Below, piece after piece: positions 5,452 to 41,247 of a DNA stretch of 64,000 nt. Made by a program: the position numbers and the translations under genes. This DNA is from Anaerolineales bacterium (GTDB lineage: Bacteria; Chloroflexota; Anaerolineae; Anaerolineales; Villigracilaceae). Numbering within the stretch: position 1 is the first letter of the stretch; each line of letters begins with the position of its first letter. The stretch spans positions 17,955-81,954 of the forward strand of contig DAOUAZ010000190.1 of NCBI GenBank assembly GCA_034432975.1, in the 5' to 3' direction. Below the pieces are notes generated by a model. That model was not told the origin of the DNA. It worked only from the letters and a program-made list of their open reading frames with translations, and ran no database searches.

Positions 5452-6819
5452 TTGCCCATCAGCCTCTACCTCCACATCCCCTTCTGCGCCCACCGCTGCG
5501 CCTACTGCGATTTTAACACCTACGCCGGGCAGGAGGGGGCCATCCCAGCCTATGTCCAGGCCCTTTGCAGCGAGATACAGGCTGTCGGGTCAAGCGTTGA
5601 GCGGAGCGCTAGCGCAGCCGAAACCCATCCAGGCGTTGAGCGAAGCGATAGCGCAGCCGAAACGCGCCTCCCAGTCGGAACCATCTTCTTCGGCGGCGGC
5701 ACGCCCTCGCTGCTACCCCCCGCCTACTACCGGGACATCTTCCAGGCCATCCACCGCTATTTCGACGTTCTGCCCGACGCCGAAATCAGCCTGGAGGCCA
5801 ACCCCGGCACGGTTTCCCCGCAATATCTCCACGAACTGCGCGAAATCGGCTTCAACCGCCTCAGTTACGGAGTCCAGAGCGCCAACCCGGCCGAACTCCG
5901 CATGTTGGAACGGATTCACACTTACAGCGATGTGGTGGACGCCGCGCGCTGGTCGCGGAGCGCGGGCTTCGACAATCTCAACCTCGACCTGATTTACGGC
6001 CTGCCCGAACAAAGCCTGGCATCCTGGCAAAACACCGTCGAACTGGTGCTTGGCCTGCGTCCCGAACATCTCTCCGCCTACGCCCTGACCCTCGAACACG
6101 GCACCCCCTTTGGCCGCTGGGCGCGCAAAGGCCTGCTCCCGCTCCCCGACCCCGACCTGGCCGCTGAAATGTACGAATGGCTGGATGAACACCTCTCCTA
6201 TAACGGCTACGCGCAGTACGAGATTTCCAATTGGGCACGCTCCAAAGATGAAAGTGAAAAGATGAAAGATGAAACTGACAGAGAATTTTCATCTCTCATC
6301 TTTCATCCTTCATCCTTCCAATGCCGCCACAACCTGCAATACTGGCGCAACCTGCCCTACCTCGGCCTGGGCGCGGGCGCGCACGGCTACGCCGACGGGG
6401 TGCGCTACTCCAACGTCCTGCGCATCAAAACCTATCTCGAGCGGTTGAAAACTGATAACTATTCACTGAGTACTGATAACTGGCCCCTCTCCCCCGCCGC
6501 CGTCAACCACCACCGCAACTCACCACGCGAAGACATGGACGAAACCATGATGACCGGCCTGCGCCTGACAACCGAAGGCATCTCCGCCCAGGCCTTCCGC
6601 GCGCGCTTCGGCGTCGAATTGACCGACATCTACAGGGAAAAAATCGAGCGGCTGGTCAAACTCAACTTGCTCGAATGGGCCGCCGAGTCCCCCTCGCCCC
6701 GCGGGAGAGGGGATAGGGGCGGTGTCCTGAGCCAGCCGAAGGATGAGGGCCGCCTGCGCCTGACAAAGCGCGGCCGCCTGCTCGGCAACCGGGTTTTCAT
6801 GGAATTCATCGGGGATTAA
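5452..6819 (+). CDS. hemW: Radical SAM family heme chaperone HemW (HemN-like), carrying in-frame repeat insertions
   Basis: LYLHIPFCAHRCAYCDFN radical-SAM CxxxCxxC motif, GGGTPS and HemN_C-like tail. At 455 aa it is longer than I expect for this family because of four repeat/low-complexity inserts. Confidence 0.9.
   Translation: MPISLYLHIPFCAHRCAYCDFNTYAGQEGAIPAYVQALCSEIQAVGSSVERSASAAETHPGVERSDSAAETRLPVGTIFFGGGTPSLLPPAYYRDIFQAIHRYFDVLPDAEISLEANPGTVSPQYLHELREIGFNRLSYGVQSANPAELRMLERIHTYSDVVDAARWSRSAGFDNLNLDLIYGLPEQSLASWQNTVELVLGLRPEHLSAYALTLEHGTPFGRWARKGLLPLPDPDLAAEMYEWLDEHLSYNGYAQYEISNWARSKDESEKMKDETDREFSSLIFHPSSFQCRHNLQYWRNLPYLGLGAGAHGYADGVRYSNVLRIKTYLERLKTDNYSLSTDNWPLSPAAVNHHRNSPREDMDETMMTGLRLTTEGISAQAFRARFGVELTDIYREKIERLVKLNLLEWAAESPSPRGRGDRGGVLSQPKDEGRLRLTKRGRLLGNRVFMEFIGD
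5594..5663 (+). repeat. In-frame 31-nt direct repeat (period 39) inside hemW
   Basis: gcgttgagcggagcgctagcgcagccgaaac at 5594-5624 and gcgttgagcgaagcgatagcgcagccgaaac at 5633-5663. They encode SVERSASAAET / GVERSDSAAET. Confidence 0.85.
6245..6318 (+). repeat. AT-rich imperfect inverted repeat inserted in frame in hemW
   Basis: gatgaaagtgaaaagatgaaagatgaaa ... tttcatctctcatctttcatccttcatc. It encodes KDESEKMKDETDREFSSLIFHPSSF and its composition contrasts with the surrounding gene. Confidence 0.8.
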
Positions 6820-6839
6820 TTGCAATTTCGTGAATCATC

Positions 6840-6867
6840 TTGACATTTAGAACAATTGTTCTATAAT
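6840..6867 (+). promoter_or_regulatory. Sigma-70-type promoter with an embedded GAAC-N4-GTTC (Gram-positive-type LexA/Cheo box) palindrome
   Basis: TTGACA (6840-6845), 16-nt spacer, TATAAT (6862-6867). The perfect 16-bp palindrome TAGAACAATTGTTCTA (6848-6863) spans the spacer and the -10. GGGAGG RBS lies at 6901. Confidence 0.6.
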
Positions 6868-6911
6868 TTGAGCATCCCGTAACCCCTTATCCCATTCAAC
6901 GGGAGGCTCAA

Positions 6912-7613
6912 ATGATGAACCGTAACCCACTCCAACTCTTTCCCGCGCTCAAGCGCGCCAGCAAACAGCGCGGCGCCGCCTTCGCCTTCATCCTGTTCGG
7001 CGCGCTCATCGCCTTCGAGGTTTTCAACTACTCCACCACCGACTATGCCCTGAGCGACCTGCTCGGCAACCTGGAGTTCATGGGCATCCGCTGGGCCACC
7101 CTGCTCTCGCTGGCCTTCTGCGGCATCGACTTCGCCGGCATCGCCCGCCTGTTCACCCCCGAACAGGGCCGCGACGAACCCGCCGAAGTCTGGTACCTGT
7201 TCGGGGCGTGGATTCTGGCCGCCGCCATGAACGCCACCCTCACCTGGTGGGGCATCTCGCTCGCCCTCGCCAACCACACCCCGGCCAGCGCCGCCATCAT
7301 GGAACGCGCCACCCTCACCAACATCGTCCCGGTTTTCGTCGCCGTCATGGTCTGGGTCATCCGCATTCTCATTATCGGCACCTTCTCGCTGGCGGGCGAA
7401 CGGCTCTTCACGCTGGATGAAAATCGAAGCGGCTGCCGGCCCCAGGCCGCATCCAACCGCCCCGGGCAGACTCTCCGCCCGAACACCCTCGCGGCGCGAC
7501 CGGCCCGGCCTCAGCCTTTCTCGCCGTCAAACGGAGTCATCTCCCGCCCCGAACCGACCTACCACCCGGCAGGGATGACCGCCAAATCCAAAGATTCCAC
7601 CCCGCGCTATTAA
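6912..7613 (+). CDS. Hypothetical integral membrane protein (about 4 TM) with a Pro/Arg/Ser-rich tail
   Basis: 233-aa ORF behind a strong promoter and RBS. Four hydrophobic segments (e.g. AAFAFILFGALIAFEVF, IVPVFVAVMVWVIRILIIGTF). No family recognised. Confidence 0.7.
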   Translation: MMNRNPLQLFPALKRASKQRGAAFAFILFGALIAFEVFNYSTTDYALSDLLGNLEFMGIRWATLLSLAFCGIDFAGIARLFTPEQGRDEPAEVWYLFGAWILAAAMNATLTWWGISLALANHTPASAAIMERATLTNIVPVFVAVMVWVIRILIIGTFSLAGERLFTLDENRSGCRPQAASNRPGQTLRPNTLAARPARPQPFSPSNGVISRPEPTYHPAGMTAKSKDSTPRY

Positions 7614-8039: not shown

Positions 8040-9722
8040 TTATGGCAAATCGCTGTAGATGAGTATCTCATTGGTTTGACCATTGAAATAATGCCTCGCT
8101 GGAACATACCCGCCGCTAGCCGACAAAAGTGACGCATCGTAATCATGCGCCCACAAAGATTGGTCTATTCCCATCATGTCAAGAAAAGTTGGAAAAATGT
8201 TACTATGGCTGGATTGATAGTTTGTATCCACCGGTTTCCCCAAGTTCCCCAAGACAATCAGCGGCACCCGTGCCTCTGGACTTGTTTTACCGCAATGGAG
8301 GGAGAGAGCACCATTTTCATAAAGACTTTGTCCATGGTCTGAAGTATAGATGAAAATGGTGTCACGAGTCAGGCGGCGAAAACTTTCGATATTGGGAAAG
8401 AGCTTCCTGAAAAAGCCATCTACATTAAAGAGTATAGCATTGTCGTATGAGTTCGTCACCATCTCCGGCGCATCACCATAAAAATCCCCCGGGCCGAGAA
8501 CGGGCTGCCACACCTTATGGTCCTGAGGGTAACTGCTTTCGTAACGGAAATGCGCGCCTCTTTTGTTAATAACGATGAACTTCCCAGAGCCAGATATGAC
8601 CATTTCTCGTATCATTTCTGCAGCTACGAAATCGTAAACCATGGGGTTGTCGCCAAACTGATTGGCTCGATATAGGTAATCAATATAAACGATATCCTTC
8701 TCTGAAAGCCCATTCCAAAAAACAGTGGTTTGGGCATCGAGATAGTAGGTTTCATATCCAACTGCCTTAGCGTATTGAAACAATGTTGGGGCTTTCCTAA
8801 TTTTTGAAGGACTATCAGGTTCGATGGGCAGACCGGTTAAAATCAAGCCGTTCGAGAGTTCACTGCAAGTAGCACCAGCCACAGCGATTCCCCAATTGTG
8901 GAATAAGGCCCTTTCCGTAGATAATGATGAGATATAAGGCGTTGTCTGGCGGACATAGCCATTCACTCCAAGATGGTCCGCGCGAACGCTTTCGTCTATG
9001 ATGAGAACTATGTTTTTTTTTGTTGCGGGGGCAAGGGAATAAAGAGAAAGGTCTAATTCCTGGCGTTCAGGTTTTATGACCTTTTGCTTTGCTGCCTGGA
9101 CAACTGTTGCCGTAAACTGCAAAGATGACCATCCATAATTGATTGCCTTATCGGCTTGGGCAGTGGTTATTTTCTCAACAGGAATTGCCCCCATTAGGAC
9201 AAGCGAAACCAAGATGACGGTAAAAATCAACCCGCTCTCTTTAGGCCGCGAAGGTACGCGATTCAACAGCAAAAACAACCCAATAGCGGCCATTGGAATA
9301 AGGGATTTTGGCTGGCAGTAAAGCGTACTGGCATCAAACCAAACATCAAACCCCGAATTCAGCCCCATTATAACGTCGCCAGGAACGATAAACCTGCCCA
9401 GAAGCGTTTGAAAGGAGTATTGGACCGAAATGGCGGCGCCCAAAAAAACAAGAACGATAACCTTACCCCACGCAGCGGCCAAGCGAAGCATACATAAAAA
9501 AGCAACCAAGAGGCCAAAAGAGAGAATGGTTGTCAAATACAAAATGGTCTGTAAACCAGGGTGAAAGAAGCGCGAAAATAAGAGCAAATGAATTTGCGGC
9601 CAGCCCAAAAGATGTTCATCGAGAATCCAAAATAACATAGCCCAAACCAGGATGCGCAAAGCAGGGTTTGAAACCACGCTTTGGATATTTTTCATAGCCT
9701 GAAAAAATTTTCTTTTACTCAC
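8040..9722 (-). CDS. Phosphoethanolamine transferase / sulfatase-family membrane enzyme (EptA-like)
   Basis: N-terminal multi-TM region followed by an alkaline-phosphatase-fold domain (LIIDESVRADHLGVNGYVRQTTPYISSL, YTSDHGQSL). G+C is visibly lower than in the flanks. Confidence 0.85.
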   Translation of the reverse strand: MSKRKFFQAMKNIQSVVSNPALRILVWAMLFWILDEHLLGWPQIHLLLFSRFFHPGLQTILYLTTILSFGLLVAFLCMLRLAAAWGKVIVLVFLGAAISVQYSFQTLLGRFIVPGDVIMGLNSGFDVWFDASTLYCQPKSLIPMAAIGLFLLLNRVPSRPKESGLIFTVILVSLVLMGAIPVEKITTAQADKAINYGWSSLQFTATVVQAAKQKVIKPERQELDLSLYSLAPATKKNIVLIIDESVRADHLGVNGYVRQTTPYISSLSTERALFHNWGIAVAGATCSELSNGLILTGLPIEPDSPSKIRKAPTLFQYAKAVGYETYYLDAQTTVFWNGLSEKDIVYIDYLYRANQFGDNPMVYDFVAAEMIREMVISGSGKFIVINKRGAHFRYESSYPQDHKVWQPVLGPGDFYGDAPEMVTNSYDNAILFNVDGFFRKLFPNIESFRRLTRDTIFIYTSDHGQSLYENGALSLHCGKTSPEARVPLIVLGNLGKPVDTNYQSSHSNIFPTFLDMMGIDQSLWAHDYDASLLSASGGYVPARHYFNGQTNEILIYSDLP

Positions 9723-28107: not shown

Positions 28108-28183
28108 TGTCTTTAAGCAGGCTTGACGCTTTGAGTCTTTCAACTTAAGATTGGCACATCTTTATAGAACAGTTGGTCGTAAA

Positions 28184-29509
28184 ATGCAAATCTCTTTTCG
28201 TCAAAATGAAATAGAACTCAAACCATCGCTTTATCGTGACCGTCTTTCTCAATTATTGCAGAGCGATTTGGATTTCCGTGGGAAAAGCAGCACCTATTCA
28301 TCCCACGCCATTCATGCTTTCCCTGCAAAATTCCCGCCTCAAATTCCACGCACATTCATTGAAAATCTCACTGCGCCAGGTGAAATTGTCCTCGATCCGA
28401 TGATGGGGTCTGGCACCACTTTGTTAGAAGCCGCCATACTTAATCGCCGCGCCGTTGGCATTGACATTGACCCATTGGCATTAAGAATTAGCCATACAAA
28501 ATTAAATCCTAACCAAGTGGATATTTTGAAAGAGGCAGGCGAGCAGGTGGCTGCTAACGCACAAAGCCAGTTGCAAGAAAACCCGGCAGGCTTGCTGGAA
28601 AAATTGCATTCCCGGCTCAAAGCAGAAAACCTGGAATTTATCAATTATTGGTTCCTGCCTGCTACACAACTCGAACTGTTGGCTCTCCTGGAAGAAATCG
28701 AATCCATCAAGAATGACGCCATCCGGTCGTTTCTGTTGCTCAATTTTTCGGCAATCATTATCACCAAATCGGGTGGTGTTTCCCTGGCCCTTGACCTTGC
28801 CCACACCCGCCCTCATCGAAATTTGTCCAAGACAATAAAACCCGCTATCCTCGAATTTCGCAAGCGGCTTAAGAAAAACCTGCAAAACATTGCTGACCAC
28901 GATTTCAAATATGTGGACTTTTTGACAGCGGAGGGGAATATCGAAAATTTGCCTCTGTCAGAAAACAGCGTAGACTTGATTGTGACTTCGCCTCCGTATG
29001 CCAGCAACGCAATTGATTACATGCGGGCCCATAAATTCTCGCTCGTATGGATGGGATACCCGATACCAGCCTTGAGCGAACTACGTCAAAAATATATCGG
29101 GGGCGATGCGCTCAGAGGTATCCACCTCCTACCCCTACCAGGTTTTTCCCAGGCTGTCGTCGCGCAGTTGGCGATAGTAGACAACAAGAAAGCCCAAGTA
29201 TTGCATCGCTATTATTCAGAAATGACGCTGGCGCTGGGCGAAATGTATCGCGTCTTGAAACCTGGAAAAGCTGCCGTCGTGGTGGTGGGAAATTCAATTA
29301 TGCGAGGTATCAGCACTGAAACTGACCGTTGTCTTGGAGAAATTGGCAAACAGGCAGGGTTTGACTTGGTGCAAATCGGTGTCCGAAACCTGGACCGCGA
29401 CAAGCGAATGCTGCCAGCACGCAACAACGGCAACCGAGACATCACATCGCAAATTGAAGCCCGAATGCACCAGGAATATGTACTCGGCTTCATAAAACCG
29501 GAGGCATAA
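28184..29509 (+). CDS. Site-specific DNA amino-methyltransferase (N4-C or N6-A; motif I before SPPY motif IV)
   Basis: AdoMet motif I VLDPMMGSGTTLLEA (about aa 75) and catalytic motif IV DLIVTSPPYA (about aa 270). Start trimmed to ATG 28184 (MQISF...). G+C is lower than in the flanks. Confidence 0.85.
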   Translation: MQISFRQNEIELKPSLYRDRLSQLLQSDLDFRGKSSTYSSHAIHAFPAKFPPQIPRTFIENLTAPGEIVLDPMMGSGTTLLEAAILNRRAVGIDIDPLALRISHTKLNPNQVDILKEAGEQVAANAQSQLQENPAGLLEKLHSRLKAENLEFINYWFLPATQLELLALLEEIESIKNDAIRSFLLLNFSAIIITKSGGVSLALDLAHTRPHRNLSKTIKPAILEFRKRLKKNLQNIADHDFKYVDFLTAEGNIENLPLSENSVDLIVTSPPYASNAIDYMRAHKFSLVWMGYPIPALSELRQKYIGGDALRGIHLLPLPGFSQAVVAQLAIVDNKKAQVLHRYYSEMTLALGEMYRVLKPGKAAVVVVGNSIMRGISTETDRCLGEIGKQAGFDLVQIGVRNLDRDKRMLPARNNGNRDITSQIEARMHQEYVLGFIKPEA

Positions 29510-30337
29510 ATGAAAAACTTACGGGCGGAATATCACCGGGCAGTCTGTGAAAAGGTGATGTTCGTTGATGCGCACGGCATTCCCAACAATGCGGACAAAC
29601 ACAGCGACATCAGTTCTGCGTTAGCGCGCGGCATTTTCCAACGGCTCGGCTATCCCTTACGCCCAACCCGACCTCCAGGCCAGACCAGTGGAAACATGTT
29701 CGAGCAAGTCACTGCTGCATATCTCGAAAGGGCTTTCTCATTATTAGGCCATTTGCGCCCTGGAAACTGGATTTTTTCAGTGAACAAACGAGTAGAGGAG
29801 TTCGAGCAATACGAACACCTGGCAGACCTATCCCGTGCGTTATCCACCCTGAAGGAACTCCGAGCCACTCTGGGCGATTACATCATCAAACCCGATATTG
29901 TGATTGGCCGGCAGCCAATTCGTGATGAAAAAATTAACAAGGGAGGCGAAATCCTGAACGGGGAATTCGCGGCCCATACACCGTTAAGGCAATCCAACTC
30001 ATCCAGGCCGATTTTGCACGCCAGTATCTCGTGCAAATGGACCATTCGCAGCGACCGGTCGCAAAATGCGCGTACCGAGGGGTTGAATCTGATTCGCAGC
30101 CGCAAAGGGAACACCCCTCACATCGTCATTGTCACGGCTGAACCCTATCCACAACGAATAGCATCGCTCGCGCTTGGCACGGGGGATATTGACTGTGTCT
30201 ATCACATTGCCCTGCCGGAATTGCAAAGCGCGGCAGTAGATTATCAAAACGAAGCCGTGCTGGAAATGTTGGATATTTTGGTCAGCGGAAAACGGCTGCG
30301 TGACATCAGTGACTTACCTTTTGATTTAGCGATTTAA
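29510..30337 (+). CDS. Type II restriction endonuclease, NgoMIV/Cfr10I/Bse634I-like (CCGG-core family)
   Basis: The ATG abuts the MTase stop. It has a PD motif (IKPDIVIG) and ISCKWTIRSDRSQNARTE. That gives S-x-K, then R-S-D-R four residues after the Lys and a Glu 14 residues after it. As I recall the published structures, this is the spacing of the NgoMIV active site and CCGG-reading RSDR element. Confidence 0.72.
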   Translation: MKNLRAEYHRAVCEKVMFVDAHGIPNNADKHSDISSALARGIFQRLGYPLRPTRPPGQTSGNMFEQVTAAYLERAFSLLGHLRPGNWIFSVNKRVEEFEQYEHLADLSRALSTLKELRATLGDYIIKPDIVIGRQPIRDEKINKGGEILNGEFAAHTPLRQSNSSRPILHASISCKWTIRSDRSQNARTEGLNLIRSRKGNTPHIVIVTAEPYPQRIASLALGTGDIDCVYHIALPELQSAAVDYQNEAVLEMLDILVSGKRLRDISDLPFDLAI

Positions 30338-30397: not shown

Positions 30398-33199
<2,802 letters not shown>

Positions 33200-33261: not shown

Positions 33262-34935
<1,674 letters not shown>

Positions 34936-35268
34936 GGGGGTCTGATGGTAGATCAATCGAGATTCGAGATTGGACGTTTAGGTTGAGCGTATCGAAATTG
35001 GGCGTATTGTATCAGATGGGAGAGAGAGAAAGGGGGAACTGGAAACTTGCCTTATCTTCTTGTCAATCGCCGCTCTGTCTCGGCCATTTATTTTATGAAC
35101 CAAGGTATCTATTCAGCCATAGCGTTGAAAGCCCAACAGTTGGCGGCATAGGCCAGTTTTGGCGAAAAAATGCCACATTTAGGACGGCTACATATGGCTA
35201 GCAATTGTGATTTTGACCTTTCTTGCCACAAGCAGTGGTTTTTGCTCCAATAGGCTGAATAGTTACTT

Positions 35269-36345
35269 ATGAAGAACCAAGTTATAATTTTGCATCAAAA
35301 GGATGAACTAATGCCAAGAAGATCTCCTTATACTCGTGTTAATCGAATTAATGAAGTCAGAGCGAACCACGTTAAAGGCATGGGGGATGTGGTTTTTAAG
35401 GGCTTCCAATGCCTGAACAGCGAATGCGAAGAGTTTATTTTTGTACGAAAGGATTCAATCGGGGAAATATTTGAAATAACCTGCCCTTCATGTGGATTTG
35501 TACTCCGTTCTGGTGACGAGACACAATTTTTCTCTTATGAAATGTTGGACATACGGAGCAATCCGCCAACCATAGTTGAAGACGGAAACTTTACGATCTT
35601 ACACGACGATTACGTAGCCGAAGCGAAGGAATACAAGTATTGTCTGATTTGCAATACGCTAAAGCCATTGGATTTGTTTGACAGGCACAGTGCAAGGCAA
35701 TCTGGCAGGCAAGGCGAATGTCGGTTGTGTAAAGCAGTATATAACTCGATTAAAAACCAAACACGGATAACTGATCAGCACCGTGAGGCCGCTCAAAAAA
35801 GAAGAATGTATCTCGACTTATCAGGCGGGACAAAAATAGACAGTCAAGCGATATACGAAAAATATGGTTACAAGTGTTTTAAGTGTGGAAAAGACTTAAG
35901 AACAGTGAAAAACCAGAACGAACGCCCTTTAGATCATACGTTGCCAGTAGTATTTCTTTGGCCTTTAACAACTGCAAATGCAACATTACTTTGCAGAGAT
36001 TGTAATGGCGGAAAATCTGGAAAATGGCCTTCGCTTTACTATTCCGATCAAGAATTGAGACGGCTGTCGGTGATTACTGGAATATCGTATGACTTATTGA
36101 AGTCAGAGTCACATTTCAATCCAGAAGCCATTGAACGGCTCAGGAATCATGAAGTGGTTGATGGTTTGTTGAGCAAATACTCGCCTTATATTGACGAACT
36201 TATCAAGTTGCGAAATCGAATACTTCGTCGTGAAGGGTTTGATTTCTTTGCGCACTCACAAGTTATTTCACGGTCTTGGATTGACAGAGCGAATGAGGCG
36301 ATTGGAGACTTGGCTAATAGAGAACAAGATACTGATGGGATGTAA
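35269..36345 (+). CDS. HNH nuclease with N-terminal Zn-ribbons (candidate restriction endonuclease)
   Basis: Cys pairs CLNSEC...CPSC and CLIC...CRLC. The HNH core is CFKCGK...LDHTLPV...NATLLCRDCNGGKSGKWP. Low G+C. It is convergent with the large MTase and overlaps it at the 3' ends. Confidence 0.8.
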   Translation: MKNQVIILHQKDELMPRRSPYTRVNRINEVRANHVKGMGDVVFKGFQCLNSECEEFIFVRKDSIGEIFEITCPSCGFVLRSGDETQFFSYEMLDIRSNPPTIVEDGNFTILHDDYVAEAKEYKYCLICNTLKPLDLFDRHSARQSGRQGECRLCKAVYNSIKNQTRITDQHREAAQKRRMYLDLSGGTKIDSQAIYEKYGYKCFKCGKDLRTVKNQNERPLDHTLPVVFLWPLTTANATLLCRDCNGGKSGKWPSLYYSDQELRRLSVITGISYDLLKSESHFNPEAIERLRNHEVVDGLLSKYSPYIDELIKLRNRILRREGFDFFAHSQVISRSWIDRANEAIGDLANREQDTDGM

Positions 36346-38974
36346 CAGTGCCTTTGTCGGTTACTCCGTGCGTTTCGCAATGTTCGACGCTTTCATCCAG
36401 AATATCGGCTTGTCGAAACCACCGTTTTCCCATTTTTTGCAAGACATCAGCCATATCGCACTTCTTGCTCTTGCCAAGGTGCAATACTAAAACGCCGCTC
36501 GACTTCAGTCGTTCTCTTGCTTGTCGAAAAATTGGTTCATAGACGCTAAAATCTTTCTTCTGGCGTTCGTCTACAAATCCTTGTGGACGTGTAGTAAAGT
36601 CATCTTTTGACCAGCCAACAAACCAAAGACGAAGCCAATTTGCTACATAAAACCGCGTACTATCAAAAAACGGTGGTGATGTAATTACAGCATCAAGTTG
36701 CTCGATTTCTCTAGGCCACCATCCAGTCGCGTCTTGCAAGTAGGTTTTTCCATCAACAAAATCTGATGGCAATTCATAACTTAGACTTCGATATACTTTT
36801 TCCTTGAGTTTCTCTATTAGTGAACGATATTCATAATCTCCTTGCGGTTTATAAGGGGTAATAGGGTGAGACCTTCTGCTCAAAGCATAAGGACGATTTC
36901 CATGCAAAATATGTAACAGAGAGGCAAGAACGAATCTTGCGCCAGGTGTTTCAGGGTGATTTGCTCTAAAGTGTCTTCGTGCTAGAAGTATTTCACGTAA
37001 AGTATTATCTTCGTAATACTCCTTTATTTTTCCATTGAATCCAAAATTTTTTACTTCTTCCAATTCATTAGATGTTGCGTTGTTGCTTTTGATATAGTGT
37101 TCCAGGGCGTCAATCACCGGAACGCAATTCTCAGGGGAAACCCTTTGAGTTTTTGCGTTTGCAATCACTACCGCAGCAGGGCTAATATCAAAACCATAAG
37201 AAGTTTTACCTTGTAAAGCCGCTTCAAATGGAATTGTTCCAACACCTACAAACGGATCTAGAACCTTTCCACCTTTAGGCACAAAAGTTTTTACCAAGTG
37301 ATGAGAAATTGCAGGTTTCAGTTTTCCCATATAAGAACAAAGAGAATGTCTCTCATGTCCCCAGTTGCGCTTAGCAAAGGGCTCTCTTTGGTGAGGCAAG
37401 GTATCTTTAAAATTTTTCCAAGAGAGAATCCAATTGGGAAATAATTGGACGGAAAACCTTCTGCTGGTTTCATAAGAAAAAATTTGAAGGACTTGCTTTA
37501 ATGGAGAGCCACTTCGAGATTGCCTTTCTCTCAAGGTGACTTGTTCTATTTGCTTAAATCCAATATCGGATAAGCTATTAGAGAGCAATTCATCCACAGG
37601 AACATGTACTCCCCCATATTCCGAATCACCAATATCAATTGCAACAGTTGCATTCTTGTTCAAATGGGGTTTTATCGCATTGAAGATTGATGTCAACTCC
37701 GAAAAATAAGAATCAACCATTTTAGGAATTCGGACATCATAAGCGTTTCTTTCTAATTCCGAAATCACCTTTCGAACCTTGCGATTTTCGGATTTGGTAG
37801 CATTAGCCATTGTGACGTCATTGATTCCAGCAGTAACTGCTTGCGCTCGGAAACTTGCCAAGTCAGGGGAATCTTGCAAACACCGCATAAACCACAATTC
37901 GATCTTTGTATTTCGAAAATAGTTAGTGCCATTGACGTAGGGCGGACTTGTTATCACAGCGTCCAGCGATAAATCAGGAACGTTTGAAAGCGATTTAGCT
38001 GACTCGCAAATAAGAATTGGCGCAACCTTCAATCCATTCACATCGCCCTTAACGTCGCTGGCAATGTTTTTTAAATTGGTTTCCAATAATTGTAGGATGT
38101 CAATATTTTCCTTGATGAGCTCTTCGTTAGTTTTATATCGTAAATCGCCGGCCCGTTTCATTTTCGATGCCGGCACAAGTGAAGACAAAACCGCTATCAT
38201 AAACAAATCTGACAAAAGCGGATTACTTAATCGAGTCTCATCAACCCAATTTCTCAATCGTAAAATACTTAGATAATCATCTTGGTCAAAAAACTGACTA
38301 TTTCCAAAAACCTTCTTGTACGTTGCATCCAGTACAAAATCAGGCTCATGCTGAGTTAGCATGTCCAGTTTAGACGCAATTTCATCAAGTTGTGCAGCCA
38401 AACCCCATCTAATCGCAGATTTAGCCATACGAATTTGGATTTTTGTTAATGATATGAATTGAAGTACAGGATTGATTTCGCAGAAATACGCTTCCTTGCC
38501 TAATTCTGAGACAGCAAATGCTGTTGTGCCTGTTCCAGCAAATGGATCAAGAATACGATTTGCGTCAGGCACATAACGATCAATGATATTTTCAACAAAT
38601 TCTGGAGAATAACCTTCCAAGTATGAATACCAACGAACAAAAGGTTCTTTTTCACCTCCTTTAAAAGTGACTGTAATTGGGTCGAAAATATAGTTGTATG
38701 AGTCACTCGTTTCTTTCACTGACCGAATTGATTTGCTAATCTGCCGTAAGCAGTAAGTATTTAATGGCAAGTCTTCCTCACGAGCCGAATGCACTAAATT
38801 TTCATAGGAATCAACGTTCAATAAACCCCGTATTTCAGCGCTTGAAAGCCCTTTTACTGCTTCGTGTAAATCATCATAGCGTTTTCCAAACGCCATTGTC
38901 AGCGATTTTTCTTTTGCCGATTCGCCAGGATAATCAGAAAAATAGACCGTTTTGAACTTCTGCTTGGTTGTCAT
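36314..38974 (-). CDS. Tandem two-domain DNA amino-methyltransferase (fusion of two SPPY/SPPF modules)
   Basis: Module 1: ILDPFAGTGTTAFA + AVITSPPYVNGTNY. Module 2: VLDPFVGVGTIPFE + AVITSPPFFDSTRF. 886 aa, low G+C. Confidence 0.87.
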   Translation of the reverse strand: MTTKQKFKTVYFSDYPGESAKEKSLTMAFGKRYDDLHEAVKGLSSAEIRGLLNVDSYENLVHSAREEDLPLNTYCLRQISKSIRSVKETSDSYNYIFDPITVTFKGGEKEPFVRWYSYLEGYSPEFVENIIDRYVPDANRILDPFAGTGTTAFAVSELGKEAYFCEINPVLQFISLTKIQIRMAKSAIRWGLAAQLDEIASKLDMLTQHEPDFVLDATYKKVFGNSQFFDQDDYLSILRLRNWVDETRLSNPLLSDLFMIAVLSSLVPASKMKRAGDLRYKTNEELIKENIDILQLLETNLKNIASDVKGDVNGLKVAPILICESAKSLSNVPDLSLDAVITSPPYVNGTNYFRNTKIELWFMRCLQDSPDLASFRAQAVTAGINDVTMANATKSENRKVRKVISELERNAYDVRIPKMVDSYFSELTSIFNAIKPHLNKNATVAIDIGDSEYGGVHVPVDELLSNSLSDIGFKQIEQVTLRERQSRSGSPLKQVLQIFSYETSRRFSVQLFPNWILSWKNFKDTLPHQREPFAKRNWGHERHSLCSYMGKLKPAISHHLVKTFVPKGGKVLDPFVGVGTIPFEAALQGKTSYGFDISPAAVVIANAKTQRVSPENCVPVIDALEHYIKSNNATSNELEEVKNFGFNGKIKEYYEDNTLREILLARRHFRANHPETPGARFVLASLLHILHGNRPYALSRRSHPITPYKPQGDYEYRSLIEKLKEKVYRSLSYELPSDFVDGKTYLQDATGWWPREIEQLDAVITSPPFFDSTRFYVANWLRLWFVGWSKDDFTTRPQGFVDERQKKDFSVYEPIFRQARERLKSSGVLVLHLGKSKKCDMADVLQKMGKRWFRQADILDESVEHCETHGVTDKGTVTSHQYLVLY

Positions 38975-38980
38975 GTGTAT

Positions 38981-39009
38981 AGACTATCATAATATGATAG
39001 TCTTGTCAA
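38981..39009 (-). promoter_or_regulatory. Perfect 23-bp palindrome next to a TTGACA box immediately upstream of the MTase ATG
   Basis: agactatcataatatgatagtct (38981-39003; 11-bp arms). On the minus strand, TTGACA (39009-39004) precedes it and the ATG (38974) follows 6 nt after it. Confidence 0.45.
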
Positions 39010-39336
39010 TAACCAGATTACATGTTCTAAATTATATGACCTAATAGGCAGGCTGAGATAAATTTATGTCAAATCCAAAGAGACGAGGAAGGGAATGGCC
39101 TAACCCCGATTGCCGTAATGGTTCGCGGTGTTGAGTTGTCCCTTCCCTGTTACCCTTCGGGGACGTTTTGCGGAGGGAAGGGCATGGGCACGGCTTTTAC
39201 CTTGTCCGCTGGCGCAGACTTGGCTAGCAATGGTTTAGCCTTCTCTCCCTCAGGGAAAAGGGAGCGGTGTGAGGGTCATCAAGACCGGAATGTATCAAGA
39301 CCAGTTGTAAATTGCCCTGGAGCGATATTCCGAATC

Positions 39337-39364
39337 AAAAAGGTGGGACTTCGTCCCACTTTTT
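39337..39364 (-). terminator. Intrinsic terminator after dnaA
   Basis: aaaaa-ggtgggac-ttc-gtcccac-ttttt, located 15 nt past the dnaA stop. The A/T tracts on both sides make it bidirectional in form. Confidence 0.75.
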
Positions 39365-39378
39365 GCTCGCTATCATTC

Positions 39379-40737
39379 TCAGGCAGCCGCCCCAACCTGG
39401 CTGTAATTTTGCATTTGCAATTCGATGTTATTGACGCGCCGCCGCAGGTTGCCGTCTTGCTGGATGGAGTCGGCTATTTTTTCGATGGCGTACATGACGG
39501 TGGTGTGGTCGCGCCCGCCAAGCACGTGACCGATTTGGGGCAGCGAGGCGTCTGTTTTGTTGCGCAGGAGGTACATCGCCACCTGGCGCGGTTCGGCAAT
39601 TTTTTGCGAGCGGTCGCGGCTGCGGATGGCATCGACGGTAATTTGCCATTCCCGCGCGACCAGTTCGATGATTTTTTCCGGCGCGACATGATGACGCTGC
39701 GGCAGCAGGTCGACCAGGGCCATTTCGGCCAGCCGTTGGTTGATGGGCGCGCCCACCAGTTCGGCATACGCCACAATCCGGTTGAGGGCGCCTTCCAGTT
39801 CGCGGATGTTGGATTGCACCCGGCGGGCAATCATATCCATCACATCGTTGGGGATTTCGCGACCGGCGCGCTCTGCTTTGTAGCGCAGGATGGCCAGGCG
39901 GGTTTCGAAATCGGGCTGCTGGATATCGGCAATCAACCCCCACTCGAAGCGCGAACGCAGGCGCTCCTCGAGCGTGACCAGCGATTTGGGCGGCCGGTCG
40001 GACGAGACGATGATTTGTTTGTCCTGGCTGTGCAGGGTGTTGAAGGTGTGGAAAAATTCTTCCTGGGTCGATTCTTTCCCGGCGATGAACTGGATGTCGT
40101 CGATGAGCAGCACATCAATCGAGCGATATTTTTCGCGGAAGGCCTGGGTGGTGTGGGCGCGGATGGCGTTAATCAGGTCGTTGGTAAATTCTTCGGAGGA
40201 AACGTACAATACGCTCAAGCCCCGGAAATGACAGGCGTTGCCGATGGCGTGCAGCAGGTGGGTTTTTCCCAGCCCCACGCCGCCGTACAGGAAAAGCGGG
40301 TTGTAGGCGCGGGCGGGTTTTTCGGCCACTGCCAGGGCGGCGGCGTGCGCCAGGCGCGTATTGGCGCCCACCACGAAGTTGTCGAAGGTGTAGCGCGGAT
40401 TGAGAGTGGTGTTGCGCTGCTTAACGGAAGCAGGCTCCGGCGGGTTGGTTCGTTCCGCTTCGGCGGCTGATTCGACCTCGGCGATGTCGTATTCGCTCGC
40501 CACCACAAATCGGACTTCCACTTCCTGTTCCATAAGACCCGCCAGGAGGCGGGTAATACTGCTCAAGAGACGATTCTCCAGCCAATCTCGGGCGTAAGCA
40601 TTTCGTACTGCGATGGTCAGGATACCATCTTCAGAAGAGACGGGGCGGGTATCGCGCACCCAAGTGTCAAAGGATGCTCGCGGCATTTCCATTTGGAGTT
40701 GCCCCAGCACCGATTGCCAGGCTTGTACTGCATTCAT
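39379..40737 (-). CDS. dnaA: Chromosomal replication initiator protein DnaA
   Basis: AAA+ motifs (NPLFLYGGVGLGKTHLL, LLIDDIQF) and C-terminal DNA-binding helix (ARQVAMYL...LPQIGHVLGGRDHTTVMYA). Start set at MNAVQAWQ (ATG 40737) behind a GGTGGAG RBS. The track start at 40782 is also possible. Confidence 0.95.
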   Translation of the reverse strand: MNAVQAWQSVLGQLQMEMPRASFDTWVRDTRPVSSEDGILTIAVRNAYARDWLENRLLSSITRLLAGLMEQEVEVRFVVASEYDIAEVESAAEAERTNPPEPASVKQRNTTLNPRYTFDNFVVGANTRLAHAAALAVAEKPARAYNPLFLYGGVGLGKTHLLHAIGNACHFRGLSVLYVSSEEFTNDLINAIRAHTTQAFREKYRSIDVLLIDDIQFIAGKESTQEEFFHTFNTLHSQDKQIIVSSDRPPKSLVTLEERLRSRFEWGLIADIQQPDFETRLAILRYKAERAGREIPNDVMDMIARRVQSNIRELEGALNRIVAYAELVGAPINQRLAEMALVDLLPQRHHVAPEKIIELVAREWQITVDAIRSRDRSQKIAEPRQVAMYLLRNKTDASLPQIGHVLGGRDHTTVMYAIEKIADSIQQDGNLRRRVNNIELQMQNYSQVGAAA

Positions 40738-41247
40738 GGTCTGCTCCACCAGCTGAGATAGGGGTAAGTAAGCCCTCTGCAAGTTTTTTTACAGAGGGGT
40801 GGAGAATGTACTCGGTTGTCTCGGTATTTTTCAGGGGTTTGGATGCAGTCTCCGGCGGGCATCCACTCAATCAACTGCCCCCATTCTAGCAAAAAGGAGG
40901 AAAACCCGCCACACGAAAAACCTACGCTTCCTTAAAAACTTCGACTTTTTTAAGACGGGTAAACCTTAAAGAAACCATCACTACCCAGTACCCGTCTTTC
41001 CAGGTAATCGAACGTTTGTTTCAGCCAAAAACGCCCTGCCTCATAAATTTGCCCCCCATATATGGGGTTTCAAGCCCCAAAACAGCCATCTGTCGTATAT
41101 CTATCTTAAGGAATTCAAGGGACGAAGAAGTACGCAATTATGCTTTTGTAACGCGCCTGGCAACCACTCGTTTGCCGAATTAGGGCTGCCTCTCCGAATT
41201 TATGGAAATCCCGGCGAATGTTAAAGAATTCAACGAGCGGGAGCGGG

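Follow-up and report, generated by a model that had tools for sequence, protein, structure and literature searches.

The window analyzed here, a 64-kb stretch of an Anaerolineales contig to whose positions all coordinates refer, contains between ettA and dnaA a low-G+C block of ~4.1-4.2 kb with two convergent genes, one for a predicted zinc-ribbon HNH nuclease and one for a predicted two-module DNA methyltransferase (MTase). Our analysis indicated, with a probability of roughly 75%, that this block is a horizontally acquired Type II restriction-modification (R-M) cassette composed of a two-strand MTase, an HNH nuclease and a probable autoregulation of the MTase. Acquisition of the cassette was evident from close relatives, in which the site is empty or differently filled, together with a 92.6%-identical cassette in another genomic context, in agreement with the original prediction of an acquired island made from the letters of this stretch. 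Judged from its sequence, the cassette is a Type II R-M system, probably with an asymmetric recognition site, because an MTase with intact motifs is inherited together with a neighboring nuclease whose catalytic core is intact, and because the pair is mobile; a separate endonuclease gene adjoining the MTase gene and inherited with it is characteristic of Type II systems. What is new here is a palindromic operator in the MTase promoter, conserved across phyla and co-occurring with an N-terminal extension of the MTase.

A low-G+C insert at a variable junction

Base composition set the block apart from both of its neighbors. The G+C content in 500-nt windows was 0.37-0.45 over ~35000-39100, as against 0.55-0.66 in ettA and dnaA. 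By segment, it fell from 0.595 in ettA to 0.430 (34918-35310), 0.414 (nuclease gene), 0.399 (MTase gene) and 0.349 (38975-39100), and rose again to 0.547 (39101-39332) and 0.584 in dnaA. The G+C content at third codon positions (GC3) was 0.39 and 0.33 in the two island genes, compared with 0.72-0.78 in ettA, dnaA and gyrA. The block holds two substantial open reading frames (ORFs), 35269..36345 on the plus strand and 36314..38974 (886 aa) on the minus strand, which converge and overlap by 32 nt at their 3' ends (36314..36345). They are flanked by gyrA (30398-33199), the ABC-F/EttA gene ettA (33262-~34935, minus strand), dnaA (39379-40782, minus strand) and a GAF histidine kinase gene. Among named sequences, the DnaA proteins nearest to that of the window come from Anaerolineae/Chloroflexota metagenome assemblies. 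No integrase or transposase ORF was present in the block, no RNA family was found in the island, no tRNA occurred in the 64-kb window, and the only repeat pairs flanking the block were at chance level, so that a recombinase gene, a tRNA target and flanking direct repeats, the hallmarks of integrative mobile elements, were all lacking. The sharp drop in G+C at ~35000-39100 beside dnaA, the presence of only two genes in convergent orientation and the absence of an integrase, transposase, tRNA or convincing repeats at the edges had all been noted in the original prediction and were borne out.

The insertion itself was delimited by comparison with relatives, as the original prediction had proposed. 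Homology to the dnaA-ettA loci of relatives (blastn) ends at 34917 and restarts at 39333 (locus L084) or 39402 (locus L087), which defines a lineage-specific insert at 34918..39332. In the metagenome-assembled genome (MAG) with L087, whose DnaA is 89% identical, the order is kinase-dnaA-ettA-gyrA, and dnaA and ettA stand next to each other, 12 nt apart, without the island, which represents an empty site. On three further contigs (L084-L086; DnaA 93% identical), a 194-aa DUF2238 gene occupies the dnaA-ettA slot. Because the site is empty or differently filled in these relatives, the junction is variable and the island was inserted into it, and no relative carried the same genes at this locus at native G+C. 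We also considered whether the island had kept a leftover of the slot gene of these relatives; no trace of a DUF2238 remnant was found in it, and the idea was rejected. A 21-nt imperfect repeat (35275-35295/39394-39414; 17/21 matches), the second copy of which falls within the 3' end of dnaA, was likewise rejected as an insertion scar, since it coincides with neither breakpoint and other chance pairs are equally good.

Mobility of the pair was apparent from a second MAG (GCA_026646095.1), in which a 289-kb contig (L168) carries a nuclease gene with at least 90% identity beside an 886-aa MTase gene with the same overlap, and in which the right-hand neighbors are unrelated, with a Uup-like ABC-F gene in place of dnaA. 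The nucleotide identity of 92.6% to L168/L169 extends over 3,818 bp (35274..39091; G+C ~0.40), comprising both genes and their immediate upstream regions, and the identity collapses beyond these limits. The recently exchanged block therefore includes 37 nt upstream of the nuclease ATG at one end and 117 nt upstream of the MTase ATG at the other. In nearly every host among the reference-genome loci, the G+C content of the cassette is below that of its flanks.

Several smaller features were observed at the borders of this block. The left flank of the cassette in L168 (6547-6975), compared with 34786-35108 of the window, consists of a truncated ettA fragment and a diverged copy of the ettA-cassette spacer; the fragment comprises the first 48 codons, of which 43 align with the EttA of the window at 88% amino acid identity. 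Either the ettA adjacency is older than the difference in the right-hand neighbors, or flanking DNA was co-transferred with the cassette; alternatively, a later rearrangement truncated ettA. A 165-nt stretch of the spacer between ettA and the nuclease gene (35109-35273) is missing from L168 and lies between the two copies of an imperfect direct repeat, TTATGAACCAAG(G/T)TAT, at ~35094-35110 and ~35266-35287. On the other side, a 230-nt segment with host-like G+C (39101-39332; 0.547) separates the low-G+C cassette from the terminator hairpin of dnaA (39343-39359); this segment contains a G+C-rich hairpin (~39140-39185) and has no detectable similarity to the loci of relatives or to other cassettes.

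Nuclease and methyltransferase architecture

The predicted restriction endonuclease gene (35311..36345, plus strand) encodes a zinc-ribbon HNH protein that most likely starts at Met15 of the longer ORF, at 35311. The resulting length of 344 aa, rather than the 358 aa given in the original prediction, was adopted because homologues are 339-347 aa long and span 92-96% of the longer ORF, because the NCBI gene call for the identical sequence is 344 aa, and because a ribosome-binding site, AAGGA, lies 9 nt upstream of the ATG at 35311. The homologues form 799 clusters at 90% identity, mostly 62-70% identical over their full length, and are especially common in MAGs of sponge symbionts; a Pfam domain was found in none of the 799, and the sole name given to them is "hypothetical protein". 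In an exhaustive search of representatives (853 matches, E≤1e-3), the full-length relatives formed a compact family, and residues ~100-280, which comprise zinc ribbon 2, the basic helix and the HNH core described below, recurred at the C-terminal end of many proteins of 430-560 aa.

The conserved residues, numbered from Met15 and judged invariant from an alignment of 30 homologues, fall into three groups. First, a family-specific, β-rich N-terminal domain (aa ~25-105), visible as β strands in the AlphaFold2 model, contains zinc ribbon 1 (C34, C39, C58 and C61, invariant; 35410..35493, plus strand) and is a candidate DNA-recognition domain. Second, zinc ribbon 2 (C111, C114, C137 and C140, invariant; 35641..35730, plus strand) is followed by an invariant basic helix, DQHREAAQKRR. 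Third, the putative HNH, or ββα-Me, catalytic core (35875..36015, plus strand), which was located from the alignment, sub-threshold Pfam matches and Foldseek, carries the invariant residues C189, C192, D208-H209, N223, C228, N232 and K235. The two N-terminal Cys4-type ribbons of the original prediction were thus recovered, and a third zinc site that it had missed is embedded in the HNH core, where the fourth ligand is a Cys in the window protein and a His in most homologues. Its HNH assignment is consistent with the invariance of D208-H209, N223 and N232, and the protein has the catalytic His, the structural Asn, the metal-binding Asn, the CxxC zinc site and the predicted fold of the HNH superfamily. 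Sequence and profile searches of the PDB matched only Cas9 HNH domains (E=0.015 and E=0.003), and Foldseek searches with the model returned only Cas9 and Cap5 HNH domains, the best being that of Nme1Cas9 (E=9.4e-4; probability, 1.0). The likeness to Cas9 HNH and T4 endonuclease VII lies in the topology of the ββα-Me core and the D-H...N...N pattern and is limited to the ~100-aa catalytic domain, whereas the RNA guide, the RuvC domain and the junction-resolving context of those proteins have no counterpart here.

The search for a named prototype gave only generic HNH or MTase matches in Pfam, NCBIfam, PADLOC, PDB sequence and profile searches and Foldseek. The nuclease matched none of the solved restriction enzymes (Hpy99I, PacI and McrA-type) in PDB or fold searches, and among the 14 published subfamilies of HNH restriction enzymes (PMC2441816), those with solved structures (Hpy99I and PacI) gave no match by PDB sequence, profile or fold search. 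SapI is a poor fit by its description, with two catalytic sites per monomer (PMC3017599) versus the single HNH of the window nuclease. We call the family unnamed in the sense that it has no Pfam, NCBIfam or PADLOC model; it may already stand in REBASE as a putative or characterized enzyme.

With a single HNH active site per 344-aa chain, a double-strand break would need a dimer or two successive cuts. In the proposed mechanism, the zinc-ribbon/β domain at the N terminus would read the DNA sequence, and the zinc-ribbon and HNH (D-H...N...N) module would cut unmethylated DNA in one of these two ways. The same single site raises the alternative of a strand-specific nicking R-M system, in which a monomeric HNH protein nicks one strand and both MTase modules still protect both strands. 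Many small zinc-ribbon HNH enzymes are nickases (PMC3592412, PMC3017599), and natural nicking enzymes such as Nt.CviPII and the phage HNH nickases are established. Even so, the characterized HNH Type II enzymes KpnI, Hpy99I, PacI, MnlI and HpyAV, which have a single site in each chain, make double-strand breaks as dimers or sequentially (PMC4081073, PMC2816704), and the well-folded, all-helical C-terminal domain of ~100 aa in the nuclease model (aa ~240-337; 36028..36321, plus strand; pLDDT, ~90), for which Foldseek found no structural match, could serve dimerization, or possibly DNA binding. The sequence itself is compatible with nicking and with cutting alike. We regard nicking as improbable, with a chance that is small enough to leave double-strand cleavage as our preferred reading and large enough to place it first among the alternatives.

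The second gene of the cassette (36314..38974, minus strand; 886 aa) encodes a DNA amino-MTase with a PF01555 (N6_N4_Mtase) match (E=4e-24; 86.1 bits; cut-off, 26.7), and its product is 100% identical to a database protein (P0121). PADLOC assigned it to Type II MTase models only and resolved two modules (aa 100-499, PDLC03389, E=1e-69; aa 533-636, E=1e-24), whereas the best PF01555 stretch (aa 338-605) spans the module boundary, starting at motif IV of module 1 and ending at motif I of module 2, because the Pfam model has the β-class motif order. Module 1 (aa ~96-510; 37445..38689, minus strand) carries motif I as DPFAGTG at aa 143 (38528-38548) and motif IV as SPPY at aa 343 (37937-37948); module 2 (aa ~511-886; 36317..37444, minus strand) carries motif I as DPFVGVG at aa 573 (37238-37258) and motif IV as SPPF at aa 766 (36668-36679). 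In each module, motif I is followed after ~200 aa by motif IV, and the halves align colinearly as paralogues (22% identity over 299 aa, E=1e-13), as expected from the two tandem MTase modules of the original prediction. The S-adenosylmethionine-binding motif I and the catalytic motif IV, the defining features of such enzymes, are therefore present twice. Both modules look active, because all four motifs are near-invariant in 32 homologues, which argues against a protein with a single active domain.

By comparison with its homologues, the window MTase appears to be a fusion of two enzymes, M1 and M2, since split versions exist on plasmid pA39BP3, in Ureibacillus and at three other loci, all with separate M1 and M2 genes. 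These natural splits, along with the near-invariant motifs I and IV of both modules, support the two-MTase, asymmetric-site logic that had been proposed for the cassette; each module would methylate one strand of a non-palindromic site. As to the product, Malone, Blumenthal and Cheng reportedly proposed in 1995 that a Ser at the start of motif IV is typical of N4-cytosine MTases. In the window protein, motif IV reads TSPPY (aa 343) and TSPPF (aa 766), is near-invariant across the family and in split homologues, and fits the S-P-P-Y/F pattern of N4-cytosine MTases as opposed to D/N-P-P-Y/F; no C5-MTase domain was found in it by Pfam. A Ser rather than an Asp at the first position (SPPY versus DPPY) is the usual sign of N4-cytosine as opposed to N6-adenine MTases (PMC12898733, PMC10406627). 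Because both copies of motif IV are SPP[YF], the product is probably N4-methylcytosine (m4C).

A fused M1-M2 protein is an arrangement known for asymmetric sites, and by analogy it would fit the window cassette (HpyAV versus Hin4II, PMC2816704; MhoVII, PMC12898733). The Type IIS system HpyAV (CCTTC 6/5) has a fused two-module M.HpyAV of 823 aa, and its isoschizomer Hin4II has separate M1 and M2 (PMC2816704); the fused versus split MTases and a restriction enzyme of 300-420 aa that is an HNH protein with one catalytic site (PMC2816704) resemble our cassette. However, M.HpyAV is a fusion of a C5-cytosine and an N6-adenine MTase, whereas both window modules are amino-MTases with SPP[YF]; the HNH of HpyAV is ColE9-like (H-H-N-H), whereas that of the window is Cas9/EndoVII-like (D-H...N...N) with Cys4 zinc sites; and the HpyAV genes are in tandem (M then R) rather than convergent, with no sequence similarity detected. 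Membership of the HpyAV/Hin4II family was rejected, since neither a C5-MTase domain nor a ColE9-like HNH, as published (PMC2816704), is present in the cassette. In MhoVII of Mycoplasma hominis, each module of a two-module MTase methylates one strand of GATG/CATC (PMC12898733). MhoVII, together with FokI-type fused M1-M2 MTases, shares with the window two modules in one polypeptide, and it is a mobile two-gene cassette found at differing chromosomal sites by species (PMC12898733). In contrast to the window modules, which are paralogues of one architecture with SPP[YF], its modules are of the β-class YhdJ and α-class D12 types, both with DPPY and producing N6-methyladenine, its restriction enzyme is not an HNH protein, and its genes are polycistronic. 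The published description of YhdJ and D12 modules with DPPY thus also set the MhoVII family apart.

Linkage of the two genes across genomes

A scan of reference genomes, taken as one genome per species, yielded 78 nuclease loci, ~74 of which have a fused-MTase homologue adjoining the nuclease. The linked pair occurs in at least 10 phyla, with Poribacteria, Latescibacterota, Anaerolineae/Dehalococcoidia (Chloroflexota), Bacteroidota, Bacillota and Alpha-, Beta- and Gammaproteobacteria represented, and further loci were found in Acidobacteriota, Actinomycetota, Spirochaetia, Nitrospirota and other lineages. The genes usually lie tail-to-tail, with -25 to +70 nt between their 3' ends, and they stay linked when rearranged into tandem (L031, L032), upstream (L045, L058) or divergent (L028) positions. 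Adjacency in ~74/78 genomes across phyla, including these rearranged forms, shows that the nuclease and MTase genes are functionally linked. The integrity of the ORFs was tallied over 83 loci, including the window and loci from other homologue searches: both genes were intact in 63, the MTase was naturally split into M1 and M2 in 4, the nuclease was broken beside an intact MTase in 5, both had decayed in 6, and an intact nuclease accompanied a broken or absent MTase in 5, of which 2 were contig-edge artefacts. We rejected this decay pattern as proof of nuclease toxicity, since the asymmetry (5 versus 3 genuine loci) is too weak.

This linkage bears directly on a reading in which a selfish endonuclease of homing or phage type, or else a general repair or recombination nuclease, merely lies uncoupled beside an orphan MTase. 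Such an origin is suggested by the best Pfam match of the nuclease, which is to Recombination endonuclease VII below threshold, by the resemblance of ribbon 2 and the HNH core to phage HNH proteins (with a weak, partial match of 27% identity to a Streptomyces phage HNH endonuclease), and by one locus (L044) that has the nuclease without the MTase. Against it, the pair is adjacent in the great majority of genomes and remains so despite changed order and orientation, the two genes move as one block, and a sister family repeats the association of R with M1 and M2 (and a C-protein) at 63/80 loci. No intron, intein or terminase context was seen. Furthermore, 72,556 plasmid and 50,697 phage records were all but devoid of the nuclease family, with one distant plasmid match and two weak, partial phage matches, which argues against a homing or phage HNH enzyme; clustering with such enzymes, which the original prediction had named as a sign against an R-M role, was not observed, and a phage or homing origin and carriage by plasmids or phages were rejected on these counts. 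We consider the uncoupled nuclease very unlikely.

The one plasmid match was Psychrobacter plasmid pA39BP3 (6.4 kb), which represents the sister family in its split M1/M2 form. Its M1 (416 aa) is 40% identical to aa 94-500 of the window MTase and lacks the first ~90 aa of that protein, its M2 (382 aa) is 52% identical to aa 519-885, and a 471-aa HNH nuclease is convergent with them, with a helix-turn-helix (HTH) C-protein gene upstream of the nuclease. In a sample of 80 metagenomic loci, separate M1 and M2 genes stood beside the nuclease at 63, mostly convergent with it, and a C-protein gene lay upstream of the nuclease at 27. The sister family thus resembles the window cassette in its homologous M1 and M2, in a zinc-ribbon 2 and HNH module that is 34% identical over 179 aa and in a nuclease gene convergent with the MTases; unlike the window, it has separate MTase genes, a nuclease of ~470-530 aa with a larger, unrelated N-terminal domain, and often a Cro/C1-type HTH C-protein upstream of R. 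The zinc ribbon 1 region is missing from the sister nucleases (~480 aa), and this family is likewise without a name in the databases searched. Sequence comparison indicates that the zinc-ribbon/HNH cleavage module is common to a large R-M superfamily whose N-terminal domains differ, as would be expected if the N-terminal domain reads DNA, as in Type IIS enzymes.

The features of the sister family also speak against a modification-dependent (Type IV-like) or other non-classical defense pair, in which the MTase would provide a self-mark or act as an epigenetic regulator and the HNH protein would attack otherwise-modified DNA, a defense role that the original prediction had left open: several HNH nucleases are modification-dependent, such as McrA (PMC4081073), and similarity to ZorE and Cas9 HNH models was detected far below threshold, but Pfam and fold searches of the nuclease revealed no domain for reading modified bases (SRA, YTH, ASCH-like or similar), a dedicated two-module MTase does not normally accompany a Type IV enzyme through inheritance, C-protein control and tail-to-tail R and M genes are hallmarks of classical Type II systems, and PADLOC returned Type II MTase models only, so that we give this reading scarcely any weight.

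Proposed methyltransferase control and the origin-proximal setting

Upstream of the MTase gene, a putative operator was identified as a perfect palindrome of 10+3+10 nt, AGACTATCAT-AAT-ATGATAGTCT (38981..39003), 6 nt upstream of the MTase ATG. It sits within the putative MTase promoter (38981..39009, minus strand), in which the -35 element TTGACA (39004-39009) directly precedes the palindrome on the MTase gene strand and is followed by a 17-nt spacer and a -10-like TAGTCT (38981-38986) located in the right arm of the palindrome. The ATG follows 6 nt later, at the expected position of the transcription start, which points to a probably leaderless MTase mRNA. The motif ACTAYCAT-N3-ATGRTAGT has exactly one exact match in the 64-kb window, and loci of Poribacteria, Latescibacterota, Chloroflexota, Bacteroidota, Proteobacteria, Spirochaetia and other groups have it in the corresponding position before the MTase gene, with TTGACA recurring at a constant spacing from the palindrome. 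Ahead of the nuclease gene, no second operator or promoter conserved across the family was found. Two gammaproteobacterial loci (L054 and L055) have another palindrome upstream of the MTase gene, with GACT/AGTC-type half-sites, e.g., AGAACAATGTAGTC-TATGT-GACTACATTGTTCT, in place of the ACTAYCAT operator, which suggests a diverged or swapped regulator specificity.

The operator accompanies an N-terminal extension of the MTase (aa 1-95; 38690..38974, minus strand) that is conserved among homologues and may be an operator-binding, autoregulatory domain. Both were present at 51 loci and both absent at 13; the extension occurred alone at 12 loci, and the operator alone at none. Cassettes without the extension have a separate gene for a Cro/C1-type HTH protein (HTH_26) directly upstream of the MTase gene, and no small HTH controller ORF exists within 34918-39332. 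In the AlphaFold2 model, the extension consists of two strands and four helices (ββα4; pLDDT, ~72-87), and single-chain Arc repressor was the only fold match with a probability above 0.5. A comparable layout is known from M.SsoII-type enzymes (SsoII/Ecl18kI/MspI/EcoRII), in which an N-terminal extension (~70 aa in M.SsoII) binds one long palindromic operator overlapping the MTase promoter, and M.SsoII and M.Ecl18kI repress this promoter by steric exclusion without a separate C-protein (PMC2760811, PMC3978073). Both features, the MTase extension (~95 aa in the window) and a palindrome overlapping the MTase promoter (10+3+10, between -35 and -10), are present in our cassette. Unlike the window system, with its fused amino-MTase, convergent genes and lack of an HTH match, the SsoII-type systems have C5-cytosine MTases, a predicted HTH in the extension and divergent R and M genes. 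By this analogy, the best-supported reading of the operator and extension is that they suggest MTase autorepression by promoter occlusion: the extension would bind the operator between -35 and -10 of its own promoter, accumulated MTase would block RNA polymerase there, and the extension would take over the role of the separate C-protein of the sister systems. Speculatively, repression of the MTase promoter could also relieve interference from convergent transcription and so permit expression of the nuclease.

Several observations weigh against parts of the R-M interpretation. The -10 element in the window is weak (3/6) and was not called by a consensus scan, the extension matches no Pfam family and no recognizable DNA-binding or HTH family, and its best fold match, single-chain Arc repressor, is not significant (E=0.52). 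At 12 loci the extension is present without a recognizable operator, and the co-occurrence of the two could reflect shared ancestry rather than function. For the nuclease, the Pfam HNH matches are sub-threshold (PF02945 Endonuclease_7, 19.0 bits with a cut-off of 23.6; PF01844 HNH, 13.5 bits with a cut-off of 21.4), so that its HNH assignment draws on motif conservation and a model of moderate confidence (pLDDT, 76.7; pTM, 0.50). The step from SPP[YF] to m4C is a rule of thumb and not proof. The decay asymmetry of the two genes is mild, with 5 loci at which R is broken and M intact versus 3 genuine loci at which R is intact and M broken or absent. Finally, L044 (Sporofaciens musculi WCA-9-b2, 6001-7011) contains an intact nuclease homologue of 336 aa that stands alone: the 6 kb to its left and right hold no MTase of this family, and no other genome locus had a clearly solitary nuclease.

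The surroundings of the cassette showed further signs of gene acquisition. A second R-M cassette (28151-30337) lies on the other side of gyrA, ~5 kb from the HNH cassette, and consists of a gene for a 452-aa amino-MTase (PF01555; DPMMGSG...TSPPY), which shares the architecture of module 1 of the fused MTase and is distantly related to it (E=4e-13), followed by a gene for a 275-aa NgoMIV-family restriction enzyme (PF09015, E=1e-100). Its G+C content (~0.48) and GC3 (0.50-0.56) are below host level, and it also looks like an insertion, because in L087 gyrA and rpoC have a different gene between them. The prototype site of the NgoMIV family, GCCGGC, has no adenine, so the stand-alone TSPPY MTase paired with this enzyme fits the m4C reading. 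Upstream of dnaA, G+C dips to ~0.47 (40783-41247), plausibly marking the region of the origin and its DNA unwinding element (oriC/DUE), and the two R-M insertions lie within ~12 kb of this probable origin. Inside dnaA (40209-40287), a match to the Rfam family AsdA, a dnaA antisense RNA, was sub-threshold (27 bits versus a gathering score of 52). Another acquired gene may be that for a 560-aa sulfatase-family protein (PF00884, E=6e-34), which lies in a low-G+C patch at 8040-9722 (0.46 over 8-10 kb).

Taken as an R-M cassette, the system is an ordinary defense system in kind and changes no concept. Because the nuclease has no Pfam, NCBIfam or PADLOC model, defense-system annotators will miss it and take the MTase for an orphan. 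Small HNH enzymes of a single chain that come with two MTases are candidates for new Type IIS or nicking tools. A bolder proposal, which we put forward tentatively and hold to be possible rather than likely, is that the cassette represents a compact branch of a large Type II(S)-like superfamily, in which a new DNA-binding domain at the N terminus of the double MTase, of non-HTH type and possibly a single-chain ribbon-helix-helix, took the place of the C-protein and reads the operator conserved across phyla, and in which a ~100-aa zinc-ribbon/β recognition domain unlike those known from restriction enzymes was placed on a portable zinc-ribbon-HNH module. If true, this would yield R-M controllers of a new class and supply small Type IIS-like enzymes with novel specificities. 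The operator and the MTase-borne domain suggest that regulatory modules are exchangeable among R-M systems, one branch relying on a separate C-protein and the other on a fused domain. For the host lineage, the dnaA-ettA junction is a variable slot, and this, together with the second low-G+C R-M cassette 5 kb away, indicates that the origin-proximal region gathers defense genes.

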